20,803 nucleotides of DNA from Abditibacteriaceae bacterium (GTDB lineage: Bacteria; Armatimonadota; Abditibacteriia; Abditibacteriales; Abditibacteriaceae): positions 1 through 20,803 of the forward strand of contig JANMKN010000313.1 of assembly GCA_031372065.1 (NCBI GenBank), written 5' to 3'. Positions 7,371 to 20,803 of this stretch are shown piece after piece; position 1 is the stretch's first letter; each line of letters starts with the position of its first letter. Made by a program: the position numbers and the translations under genes. Below the pieces are notes generated by a model, which was not told where the DNA came from, ran no database searches, and worked only from the letters and a program-made list of their open reading frames with translations.

Positions 7371-8582
7371 ATGAATTTTCAAGTCCGCCGGAATGATGTG
7401 CGAAACTTTTGGAGCGAAGCTCTGGTTGTATGGCTGATCTTTGTGGCGATGGCCTTTATGAGCCAAGAAGCAAAGGCCGGTGCTATTGGACGATTTAGTT
7501 TGCCTTACGTGATGCCGAACTCGAATCTAATAGTGAAAGGCTCTGTTCTCTGGGTCACTGAAAATTTGGATGGCGACGACATCCTACACGCTGAAATCAA
7601 AATTGACAGCGTTTTGAAGGGGAAATGGGAAACTGGCAACCTGTTTTTGCAGTTTCCGGCTCAGAGTAAGGCGAATTTGATAGGCAGGATAGTTGATACT
7701 TTAGCTAAGGACGAATACGCTCTCTTTTTCCTGAAAACGGATGGCGGCATTGTTCGCCCTGTTGATGAACAGCACATCAAGCTGCCGATTCGTCCGGGAC
7801 GCGTGCCGATGCCCGATGAACCCAACGAGACAGAATCGTTAATTCGTGACGAACTACTTTTTACGGCTTTTGGGCCATCAACTCTTTACTCAAAAGAAGA
7901 TGAAGCAAAAAAAGAAAGAGCAAAACAGCGTTCTGTCTGGGCGCCCTTCGGCATTTATTCGATGAAAATAGAAGCGGTGCGGCAACTGGGTTACCTCCCA
8001 GCCGCACCACAAACTTTGACTTTATTGGAGTCGTTAGCCTCCAGTCCGAATAGTGACGAACAAGCTATAGCTATTGCGTCCCTGCTGAATTTAAACCAAG
8101 CGAGTGTCTTGCCAATGGCTGTTAATTATTTGAAATCTGAGTCGCCAAAAGAACTTTTTCAGCCTTACACGATTGGTCATCCGAAAGATTGGGTTACGCG
8201 CGCAATTAGGAGTATCAAGAGCGTGGAAGCCATTGAACCATTAAGTGAATTGTTAAATTATCCAGAATCCCGTGTGCGGGAATCAGCCATTTGTGCTCTG
8301 CGACAAATTGGGCAGATAATTAAAGAACCGGGGCGCCCGCTAAAAGACTTGCGAGAAGGCAAAACAATCCCCTTTCTGGTCAGGGCGTTGGACGATTCAA
8401 GTCCTGAAGTCCGCTTGCAGGCAATCTGGGCGCTTTCCGAAATTACCTCAAAAAATCATTGGTTCCCGAACTATCGGTATCAAGATAAGGATTTTAATCC
8501 TGATGCCGAAAAAAAGATTATTGATCAATGGAAAGAGTGGTGGCGTGTTGAAGGCAGGGTTCTTTTTTATTCACCTGTTTAA
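7371..8582 (+). CDS. Secreted HEAT-repeat-containing protein
   Basis: Signal-like N-terminus ending in AKA; HEAT-like units AIEPLSELLNYPESRVRESAICAL and IPFLVRALDDSSPEVRLQAIWAL; C-terminal WKEWW. Confidence 0.78.
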   Translation: MNFQVRRNDVRNFWSEALVVWLIFVAMAFMSQEAKAGAIGRFSLPYVMPNSNLIVKGSVLWVTENLDGDDILHAEIKIDSVLKGKWETGNLFLQFPAQSKANLIGRIVDTLAKDEYALFFLKTDGGIVRPVDEQHIKLPIRPGRVPMPDEPNETESLIRDELLFTAFGPSTLYSKEDEAKKERAKQRSVWAPFGIYSMKIEAVRQLGYLPAAPQTLTLLESLASSPNSDEQAIAIASLLNLNQASVLPMAVNYLKSESPKELFQPYTIGHPKDWVTRAIRSIKSVEAIEPLSELLNYPESRVRESAICALRQIGQIIKEPGRPLKDLREGKTIPFLVRALDDSSPEVRLQAIWALSEITSKNHWFPNYRYQDKDFNPDAEKKIIDQWKEWWRVEGRVLFYSPV

Positions 8583-8664
8583 AACACGAAGTCATGCGCC
8601 GAAAACACGAGGTCAGGCACCAAAAACACGAGGTCAGGTGCTGGAAACACGAGGTCAAGCACTC
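8581..8664. repeat. Four 21-bp tandem repeats (plus a degenerate fifth)
   Basis: AAAACACGAAGTCATGCGCCG / AAAACACGAGGTCAGGCACCA / AAAACACGAGGTCAGGTGCTG / GAAACACGAGGTCAAGCACTC. Confidence 0.92.
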
Positions 8665-10018: not shown

Positions 10019-10105
10019 CGCAAAATTCGCAAATCCGCGCGAATTTCCGTAAATATTTTTGGAAAAATTCGCGTGGATTTGCGAAATTTTGCGTGGATTT
10101 GCGTT
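10019..10105. repeat. Intergenic inverted repeat built of 9-10 bp CGCAAAT-type units
   Basis: 10019-10046 (CGCAAAATTCGCAAATCCGCGCGAATTT) pairs with 10065-10093 (one gap, one mismatch); an extra TGGATTTGCG unit follows. Confidence 0.8.
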
Positions 10106-13555: not shown

Positions 13556-13565
13556 AGTGCGGACA

Positions 13566-13638
13566 AGTGGTGAGCGATGAGTGAAAAGTGAAAAGTAGGA
13601 GACAGTTACTCTTCACTTTTTACTCATCACATTTCACT
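13566..13638. repeat. Inverted array of heptamers (AGTGAAA / TTTCACT)
   Basis: 13576-13597 pairs with 13607-13628 (20 of 22); each arm consists of 7-bp units. Confidence 0.8.
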
Positions 13639-14101
13639 CGTCTTCTTTGCGTTCGGCGGGCGAATGGCGCAGGATATAGCTTTCAAAGAAGGCGCGATAA
13701 GGCGAATTGGTGGCGGGAGCAATGCCGAGTTTGGTGCCTTCTTCGAGCGTTTTTTCAAGGCTCCAACCATAATCAATCGCCAGATGCAGCAGCATCAAAA
13801 TGCCGGCGCGGCCTCCTCCTGCGCAGTGCGCCACCACGGGGGGCGCGTCATCGCTGTCCACGGCTTGAATGAAGCGTTGCACGGCGGCGTCATCAATGGT
13901 TTGGGGCGTGATGGGAATGGCGGCGTAATTTAGGCCAGCACTTTCCACGAGTCGCTCTTCGTCGGGCACAGTGCCATCTTCGTCGGCGGGGCGCAGATTA
14001 ATCAGCGTGCGAAAACCCGTGGAAGGAATGTCTGTGAGTTCCTCTTCGGTGGGCTGTCCGGCAATAAACAGGTTGGGCGCGATTTGACGCAGGTTTTTCA
14101 T
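13634..14101 (-). CDS. Protein-tyrosine-phosphatase-fold protein (DUF442 / sulfurtransferase-like)
   Basis: AGQP, GFRTLINLRP..E, and HCAGGGRA (CX5R loop); GGAG RBS. Confidence 0.85.
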   Translation of the reverse strand: MKNLRQIAPNLFIAGQPTEEELTDIPSTGFRTLINLRPADEDGTVPDEERLVESAGLNYAAIPITPQTIDDAAVQRFIQAVDSDDAPPVVAHCAGGGRAGILMLLHLAIDYGWSLEKTLEEGTKLGIAPATNSPYRAFFESYILRHSPAERKEDE

Positions 14102-19927: not shown

Positions 19928-20007
19928 AACTGCTTAGAGTTTATGCTGGCAAAAAGTGAGGCGAACGGCGGGCCAGAGATTTGATGTTGAATGCTGTGAC
20001 CAACAGC

Positions 20008-20047
20008 AAAAACGCGGCGAGAGAATGATTTCTCTCGCCGCGTTTTT
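20008..20047. terminator. Bidirectional intrinsic terminator
   Basis: AAAAACGCGGCGAGAGAA-TGAT-TTCTCTCGCCGCGTTTTT, a perfect 18-bp stem. Confidence 0.88.
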
Positions 20048-20052
20048 AATTT

Positions 20053-20115
20053 GCCTCCGGCTTCCTGCCTTCAGCTTCCCGCCTTCGGCTTCCCGCTTCC
20101 CGCTTCCTGCCTACG
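20053..20115. repeat. Nine tandem heptamers (GCYTYCN)
   Basis: GCCTCCG GCTTCCT GCCTTCA GCTTCCC GCCTTCG GCTTCCC GCTTCCC GCTTCCT GCCTACG; the last unit overlaps the stop codon of the orphan gene. Confidence 0.9.
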
Positions 20116-20491
20116 GATTCGGTGGCGTTGCCGGGCTACCCTGCTCTGTCGGGCCGGTGATACGATCTAACAAGGCTTCTTCGGCCTTGCCACGCAGAGC
20201 GCCGCGCAAAAGGGGTAGTAAGCCTTTGTTTAAAGCGTCTAACGCTGCGCCGTCAGCATCCATTTCAATCAACAACTGCACAATGGCTGTGATGTGACCT
20301 TGATAGGCCGTAGTTTTACCCTTGAGCGATTGAACTAAGGCCGCGATAGTCGCCATCTCGTGATCGGGCAAGTTTTGGTATTTGGTGCCTAATTGCCCCA
20401 ATACGCTGACGCCATCATCGCCGCGATCCACGATTTCCGTCAAATCCGAGTCCGTCTTTTGCCGCTCATACGGCACTGCAATGTCTGCCAT
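20111..20491 (-). CDS. Hypothetical 126-aa alpha-helical protein
   Basis: Strong GAGGAGG SD 6 nt before ATG 20491; amphipathic helices and a Pro-rich tail; downstream terminator. Confidence 0.8.
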   Translation of the reverse strand: MADIAVPYERQKTDSDLTEIVDRGDDGVSVLGQLGTKYQNLPDHEMATIAALVQSLKGKTTAYQGHITAIVQLLIEMDADGAALDALNKGLLPLLRGALRGKAEEALLDRITGPTEQGSPATPPNP

Positions 20492-20553
20492 TTCTGGCCT
20501 CCTCAAATATGAATTCCCTACCACGCAGGCAGGGTTACGACCAAAAATTCCAT

Positions 20554-20803
20554 TTTTCCCGCCAAGAAATCAAGAAAACTCACTCAGGTTTCTACTTTTC
20601 CCGCTGGGAAATGGTGCTACCTGACAAAGAAATCTCGTTTTCCCACTCAGATTTCTTGCTACCTGACTCAGGTTTCTCGCTACCTGACAAGGAAATCGAC
20701 TTTCCTCAGTGAGAAATCTCGCTACCTGACTCAGGTTTCTGCTTTTCCCACTGAGAAAACTCGATCCCTTAGTGAGAAAACGCCCTTTCCCACTAAGAAA
20801 AGC
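20554..20803. repeat. Degenerate 21-bp tandem array, at least 12 units, truncated by the window end
   Basis: Units start at 20554+21k with no indels; CTACCTGAC occurs at 20617, 20659, 20680 and 20722; TTTCCCRC-type units are interspersed. Confidence 0.93.

Follow-up and report, generated by a model that had tools for sequence, protein, structure and literature searches.

The window analysed here comprises 20,803 bp and is an entire contig (C41) of an Abditibacteriaceae assembly of 6.14 Mb in 410 contigs. At its right-hand end lies a tandem array of 21-bp units beside an orphan gene, P0001; an SDR gene and a SpoU methylase gene are its other neighbours. The following features make up this end of the window:

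20006..20050, unstranded: terminator-like hairpin downstream of P0001, common to the copy on contig C102 at about 70-75%
20052..20120, unstranded: short tandem repeat of 7/14 bp at the 3' end of P0001
20111..20491, minus strand: orphan gene P0001, 126 aa, predicted helical hairpin, with paralogues on contigs C102 (65%) and C368 (44%)
20492..20553, minus strand: spacer between array and gene, the putative promoter region
20554..20803, unstranded: array of 12 gap-free 21-bp units, with a 97% identical copy at C102:7416-7678

The array lies 62 bp upstream of P0001. The spacer carries a GAGGAGG ribosome-binding site 7 nt ahead of the ATG and a hairpin with a 7-bp stem (20516-20534), and the best sigma-70 match for the P0001 promoter, TTGATT-18-AATTTT, overlaps unit 1 and reaches only 7/12. 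At the other end of the gene, the short tandem repeat has no counterpart in the C102 copy (22% identity over 20071-20110), and the terminator-like hairpin is a candidate for the end of a cassette.

The unit register was set from 20554, and the contig stops 19 nt into unit 12. No unit follows the twelfth in the C102 sister copy, so the window contains practically the whole array. Each unit consists of a 17-bp quasi-palindromic core and a 4-bp linker. The invariant positions listed in the initial annotation were all recovered: C at position 5 and G at position 13 were present in 12/12 units each, as were a pyrimidine at position 6 and a purine at position 12, and the unit centre (position 9) was C in 10 units and G in 2. 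The 12 units contain no gaps, in agreement with the reported absence of indels. All complete 21-mers are distinct (11/11), as had been stated, but two of them share an identical 17-bp core (CTACCTGACTCAGGTTT) and diverge only at the final two linker bases.

The units had also been described as dyad-symmetric, with a comparison against shuffled controls proposed. In that comparison the symmetry stood for the consensus and did not stand for single units. Complementary pairs about position 9 numbered 59/96 (0.61), compared with 0.43 ± 0.04 at the best axis of column-permuted arrays, and none of 3000 column permutations attained the observed symmetry; a weaker second axis lies inside the linker (position 19.5, 39/88 pairs). 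Pairing within a unit averaged 4.9 of 8 positions, compared with 4.25 for halves taken from different units (permutation p = 0.09). Because pairing within units was not significantly greater than pairing between units, the dyad is a property of the consensus. The symmetry of the window array ranks 52nd among the 212 intergenic arrays of its kind described below. Phased A-tract curvature within units was considered and rejected, the AA/TT autocorrelation peaking at 21 and 42 only and not at 10-11.

Two half-site classes were distinguished, one TTTTCYCA-like and the other CTACCTGA/AAACCTGA-like, and left halves together with reverse-complemented right halves form one pool of these two classes, with about 8 bits of information per pooled half-site before small-sample correction. 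The hybrid units quoted earlier are present, 3/12 units combining both classes. In the folded strand, the G-centred units 8 and 11 form reverse-complement pairs with units 10 and 12, and because of this pairing with their neighbours they look like flipped units. Columns 1-7 covary together and columns 11-16 covary together, with linkage at zero both at the centre and at the linker. The shuffling of half-sites had been attributed to recombination at the unit centre, an attribution that the class tables do not bear out (Fisher p = 0.22 across the centre versus p = 1.0 across the linker). Among 51 symmetric arrays of the genome there was no linkage drop at the dyad axis (p = 0.89) and no significant one at the linker (p = 0.21), and in the genome-wide set linkage declines smoothly with distance. 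Half-sites thus reassort at least as freely across the linker as across the centre; the units are real mosaics, and a recombination hot spot at their centre was rejected, finding no support in the class tables or the 51-array test.

Unit order, which the initial annotation had suggested comparing, was identical and gap-free in contigs of three samples from one study, of which the best holder may be the source sample itself; the only alleles in these contigs were those of the two paralogous copies, combined in ways that may reflect mosaic assembly. No RNA sample was listed as a holder of the sequence.

A coding heptad repeat was the alternative named alongside the original claims. Non-consensus letters by column modulo 3 numbered 27, 21 and 23, giving no coding signal, and a period-3 signal at p < 0.05 was found in 5/214 arrays; with no concentration at third codon positions here or genome-wide, the heptad-repeat candidate was rejected. 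The related idea that the array once encoded, or cryptically still encodes, a peptide repeat of seven residues draws on two of six frames being open across most or all of the array, the gene-sense one in frame with the downstream gene except for one TGA, and on open frames being slightly above permutations (2.2 vs 1.8, in a set that includes 31 arrays inside genes). Codon-position bias is nevertheless lacking, the in-frame reading is the one least often open in the 38 cassette-linked arrays (0.24), most of the changes that separate the C41 copy from the C102 copy are non-synonymous in either open frame, and array variants of 41 bp (20+21) occur. We regard this reading as largely refuted and very improbable. 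For P0015, a database homologue has an N-terminal seven-residue repeat resembling a translated upstream 21-bp array, and looks like a fusion made by a gene-calling or frameshift artefact.

The genome was scanned for further arrays, a check that had been recommended. Raw lag counts were 264 at period 21, 17 at period 20 and 4 at period 22; 244 period-21 arrays remained once 7 of insufficient length and 13 periodic at 7 or 3 bases had been removed, and 212 of the 244 are intergenic. The intergenic arrays fall into about 115 sequence clusters or families and have a median length of 10 units (5th-95th percentile, 5.5-15.6). The class as a whole has a density of about 40/Mb here and in one relative. 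Column conservation peaked at 10.5 bp (power 2.05 ± 0.12; other harmonics 0.8-1.4). An origin from a triplicated heptamer was rejected, as there was no 7-bp harmonic in column conservation (power 1.1). Arrays with a period of 41 number 40 in the genome and are possibly 20+21 variants, and 59 have a period of 7.

Other repeats and paralogues were seen elsewhere in the window. A gene-less 21-bp array of about four AAAACACGAGGTCAGG units follows directly after the stop of a HEAT-repeat-like gene (array, 8581-8664; gene, 7371-8582); it belongs to the same class, and its sequence is unrelated to that of the array at 20554..20803. An array with a 41-bp period and inverted symmetry occupies 2657-2896, between a uracil-DNA-glycosylase-like and a VIT1-like gene. 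An inverted pair of heptamer runs of the AGTGAAA / TTTCACT type lies at 13562-13642, between an Rrf2-like gene and the next gene, and an inverted repeat with a 10-bp-period run (AAATTCGCG-type) lies at 10022-10103 between two oxidoreductase genes. Positions 59-1721 contain two tandem paralogues of about 250 aa, 84% identical over 300 nt, named by eye as secreted and discoidin-like, with a Lys/Ala/Pro-rich N-terminus.

Unit-level dyads at p < 0.05 were found in 68/212 intergenic arrays and were not found in 144/212, so symmetry did not extend to a general rule; the dyad and half-site pattern is a local trait of about one third of arrays and not the core of the system. In the 51 symmetric arrays the arms were slightly more conserved than in symmetry-matched permutations (0.759 vs 0.738), and the centre (0.676 vs 0.732) and the linker (0.673 vs 0.700) were less conserved, which is what an operator or a hairpin would give. 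An inverted match of 42 nt at 70% or more was present in 61/212 arrays, and 45/212 have an inverted match but no unit-level dyads. Two mirror-image arms were seen in several arrays (C14:1618-1941, C355:42673-42927, C382:21519-21758 and C60:234-429); a phase test of mirror arms (32/48 arrays) was dropped as circular.

The array might instead act as a single-stranded nucleic acid: as a structured RNA, or by forming stacked hairpins or cruciforms at which the cassette is recombined or transferred. REP/BIME elements serve an HUH transposase and attC sites serve the integron integrase in this manner. The window array folds far better than shuffles, with neighbouring units forming stems (RNA z = -6.4, DNA z = -5.6), the conserved arms and variable centre fit stems and loops, the 42-nt inverted matches point the same way, and in one family the array starts no more than about 15 bases from the stop codon. 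Good folding, however, is expected of any repeated quasi-palindrome; the 144 arrays without unit dyads and the single units that are no more self-complementary than mixed halves argue against it, and a hairpin role leaves the fixed 21-bp period unexplained. Rfam gave 8 weak matches, none at the gathering score (best 25 bits vs cut-offs of 60-100), and no enzyme gene was tied to the arrays. We consider this explanation unlikely, though worth keeping in mind.

Genes beside the arrays were taken from the gene calls of a hexamer model built for this analysis. The 212 intergenic arrays divide into 45 gene-linked (a count to which a twelfth family and eight single genes, chosen by eye, also contribute), 19 unlinked at contig ends and 148 gene-less, meaning that no recognised cassette gene lies within 300 bp; 50/148 gene-less arrays cluster with a gene-linked one. 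The adjoining genes belong to many families of 120-330 aa without Pfam or NCBIfam names, apart from a weak fn3 match in one family (E = 3e-4). Most families are acidic, and they are probably helical, as read from the sequences and modelled for P0001 only. A flanking array was found in 50/59 genes of 11 families compared with 7% of 600 random genes, a contrast that is partly circular because the 11 families were selected by adjacency. The array is on the family's usual side in 48 members, and 3/9 array-less members have less than 130 bp of upstream contig. It is upstream in ten families and downstream of the stop in one, where at most about 15 bases separate it from the stop codon. Promoter-like elements follow closely where upstream arrays end, and 17/59 cassette genes had a promoter score of at least 10 of 12, compared with 44/1201 other genes. 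Between three compared families no homology could be detected (hhalign probabilities <1% in three pairs), and because of this one shared mechanism is an assumption. A single-protein query of viral contigs returned no relative of one 121-aa family.

The product of P0001 is acidic (pI 4.5). No family was found for it in Pfam, NCBIfam or PHROG, and none was assigned from PDB sequences. A search of 1.84 billion representatives yielded 43 relatives, some of them chance matches in long proteins. Its AlphaFold model has a mean pLDDT of 83.5 and helices at 14-34, 46-99 and 105-112. Searches with this predicted fold (Foldseek, VIA) returned generic helical matches only and no DNA-binding fold; Foldseek gave none at E ≤ 0.001, and the top VIA row, an Asgard ESCRT-IIIB (Z 6.9, rmsd 10.9, 107 aligned), was tied with dozens of unrelated helical proteins. 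The best Atlas match (0.87) fell in unnamed clusters and is a mere lead.

The P0001 gene with its array recurs on two further contigs, C102 and C368. C41 and C102 agree at 95-100% in the array, the spacer and the first codons, against a DNA identity of 45-75% in the gene body; the two proteins are 65% identical and the arrays have a similarity of 0.99. This contrast suggests that the upstream module of array, spacer and first codons was copied or exchanged recently. Contig C368 has the third paralogue (44%) with a different 21-bp array. Contigs C103, C141 and C400 start with sister arrays, and those of C141 and C400 have a consensus in common with the window array. Independent assemblies connect the array to both genes, with a branch about 60 bp past the window end.

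In 5/5 relatives the gene directly after tpiA is a zinc-ribbon gene. Here the paralogue and its array occupy that place on C102, and the zinc-ribbon gene is on C103, whose first stretch consists of a sister-array end with the same tail. The cassette was inserted at the tpiA site, this one site being without gene and array in all five relatives. At the SDR site the evidence is weak: relative G002 lacks a cassette upstream of its SDR orthologue but also has a different gene order at that place. The window array sequence had no match in the other genomes of the family (0/26), these relatives being too distant in DNA sequence. Past the sister-array tail, at G000:C102:6990-7250, a WD40-like gene remnant is accompanied by about three more units of the same consensus, a decayed second copy. 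Genes adjoining cassettes at C103:253-1157 and C368:11400-11700 resemble immunity-type proteins, presumably SitI3-like and SMI1/KNR4-like, suggesting insertion hot spots. In the relative G005, a period-21 array (L029:1184-1411) lies directly downstream of the SDR orthologue.

Homologues of P0001 in metagenomes, at 37-41% identity, had period 21 upstream in 4/4 loci with upstream DNA: it was the top lag in L006, L007 and L008 and weaker in L009 (p = 0.002), with L005 left out for its mere 31 upstream bases. The L035 homologue also has period 21 upstream, and the G003 homologue has a 21/41-bp array. For two other families, homologues in four other genomes carried the array on the family's own side in 5/5 loci, with a top lag of 21 or 63 and no formal p value. 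The evidence from these homologue loci is independent of the adjacency-based choice of families.

Sequence and geometry were kept to different degrees. In two pairs of proteins that are 84% and 91% identical, the arrays have similarities near background (0.42 and 0.45; cross-family 95th percentile, 0.43), and 4/7 pairs above 70% protein identity keep similar arrays. The unit sequence turns over faster than the protein, and paralogues, distant homologues and a dozen families agree in period, in side and in a length of around 10-12 units. Within the phylum the families are patchy, present in 2 of 61, 3 of 201 and 2 of 201 genomes with their own genome included, and named homologues of two families are in Cyanobacteria, Pyrinomonadaceae and Chloroflexota. 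Sampled relatives contained 9 arrays in 200 kb (G004, 45/Mb), 1 in 120 kb (G041, 8/Mb), 1 in 160 kb (G005, 6/Mb), 1 in 400 kb (G002, 2.5/Mb), 0 in 200 kb (G011) and 0 in 60 kb (G012). Family hits were two in G004, three in G041 and one in G011, with none found in G005, G002 or G012, and array density tracks family-gene content only loosely.

The dispersed intergenic copies of one element on C102, C103, C141 and C400 are of the kind expected of a MITE. The array could be read as a minisatellite-type mobile repeat with no binding function, in which the copying process sets the period and in which slippage, conversion and template switching leave symmetry and mosaic halves as side effects. The 148 gene-less arrays, the fast sequence turnover and the smooth decay of linkage in the genome-wide set agree with this, and BrickBuilt, a 23-nt minisatellite MITE, is a precedent, as far as its abstract goes (PMC4596501). 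What makes us judge it rather unlikely is that one period recurs across about 115 unrelated families and several phyla, and that the narrow length range (5.5-15.6 units) and the fixed gene side would hardly arise unless selection or a dedicated ruler kept them. No mobilising enzyme is linked to the arrays. One of 11 integrases lies within 600 bp of an array. An origin by reverse transcriptase was also tried and found no RVT_1 match to support it, although in a genome 94% complete such an enzyme could have been missed. The five four-helix-bundle (PF05635) genes of the genome are at least 2.8 kb from 21-bp arrays.

The initial annotation had likened the array to a centromere or iteron bound cooperatively by a dimeric protein. 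If such a factor were encoded elsewhere, the array would be a sequence-specific operator, iteron or centromere; the consensus dyad, the 8 bits or so per pooled half-site, the two-turn phasing, the location at a promoter and the consensus shared by the C141 and C400 sister arrays would all fit. About 115 sequence families would, however, require as many factors, two very different half-site classes alternate within one array, there is no centre-specific linkage break, and no Rep or Par gene adjoins this array; the families are unrelated and lie on chromosomal contigs. We consider the proposal improbable. Three ParB_N matches are on array-bearing contigs, at least 16 kb from an array, and two are on contigs without arrays. 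As specific candidates, a Par centromere (parS/parC) is not supported, the window having no centromere-binding protein or motor ATPase gene, and a plasmid iteron origin was rejected on two grounds: there is no adjacent Rep gene, the neighbours being an orphan helical gene, an SDR gene and a SpoU methylase gene, with the sister copy following tpiA; and the repeats are not near-identical and asymmetric, the units differing widely around a consensus with a dyad. The array is a real feature, and the argument from helical geometry is plausible; the centromere and centre-recombination parts of the original account are not supported.

Our preferred reading, held tentatively and a little short of what we would call probable, is that the array is non-coding DNA of fixed period that may act in cis as a protein lattice with one step per two helical turns and may be mobile together with its gene. 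Selection would act on helical geometry rather than on base sequence, and therefore a protein would assemble on the array every two turns. The mosaic dyad could arise by exchange of blocks of about 10 bp between units and by inverted units, through gene conversion or template switching, and such exchange would be tolerated as the lattice reads in both directions; template switching is described, in outline, as homogenising the arms of inverted repeats (PMC8604942). The binder may be the product of the neighbouring gene or a host protein recruited with it, and the complex may regulate the adjacent promoter or mark the cassette for transfer. Array and gene would move jointly between sites and genomes, and the gene-less arrays would be leftovers or non-autonomous copies. 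Because the P0001 product is acidic and its model shows no DNA-binding fold, our confidence in the lattice goes no further; the 148/212 arrays without a recognised cassette gene within 300 bp and the weak promoter match of P0001 also weigh against it, and the lack of a mobilising enzyme tied to the arrays weighs against cassette mobility. In a bolder and doubtful version, cassettes free of enzymes would be spread across bacterial phyla, each with a small protein shaped as a helical rod, in some cases joined to an Ig/FN3 domain, that polymerises on its own 21-bp lattice, reading geometry and not bases; the filament would control the adjacent promoter and seed the hundreds of gene-less arrays.

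By linking the arrays to definite small protein families at a fixed period and side, the analysis replaces an unexplained repeat with two partners accessible to bench experiments, a 126-aa protein and a DNA fragment of 250 bp. Recognition of geometry alone, if true, would be a new way to mark DNA, and several large families of hypothetical proteins would thereby acquire a function. The class fills most large intergenic gaps of some genomes, and the searched papers offer no explanation for it; no description of a gene paired with a 21-bp array was found in the openly accessible papers searched.

Several known systems share parts of this arrangement. REP/BIME elements with a RAYT transposase combine repeats beside a small gene with many gene-less dispersed copies. 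Here, in contrast, the period is 21, the array is one-sided and the neighbour is neither a Y1 transposase nor a PF05635 protein, and a REP/RAYT identity was rejected, only 1/7 Y1 transposase matches being within 600 bp of any array. In Rep iterons the repeats keep helical phase and are located at the promoter of a small gene next to them, and direct-repeat promoters of AgrA have a 21-bp spacing. The parC/ParR centromere of plasmid R1, as outlined in PMC2241845, shares with iterons this placement of phased repeats at the promoter of a small neighbouring gene; the arrays described here differ in having no ATPase, Rep or ribbon-helix-helix/HTH gene and in forming hundreds of unrelated chromosomal arrays. 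The proposed lattice resembles the filaments of BldC-type regulators on direct repeats, in which the protein oligomerises along phased imperfect promoter repeats, as summarised in PMC5859096. BldC-type and LytTR (AgrA) regulators possess an HTH or a LytTR domain and occupy 2-4 copies of a single consensus repeat, whereas here there are 10-12 units and a neighbour without an HTH or LytTR domain. Prokaryotic intergenic DNA has a general excess of tandem repeats, and neither '21 nt' nor '21 bp' occurs in the main text of that report (PMC12418385). In its dispersal the class resembles BrickBuilt of Porphyromonas gingivalis, whose copies are likewise intergenic and tandem, with a repeat of about two helical turns (23 nt), a leader, a tail and segments that show promoter activity; it is one sequence family of 19 copies, and its abstract describes no cargo gene (PMC4596501). 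Here the period is 21, there are about 115 families with a fixed link to small helical genes, and the period is kept across phyla. We regard the class as one form of gene-associated dispersed repeat.
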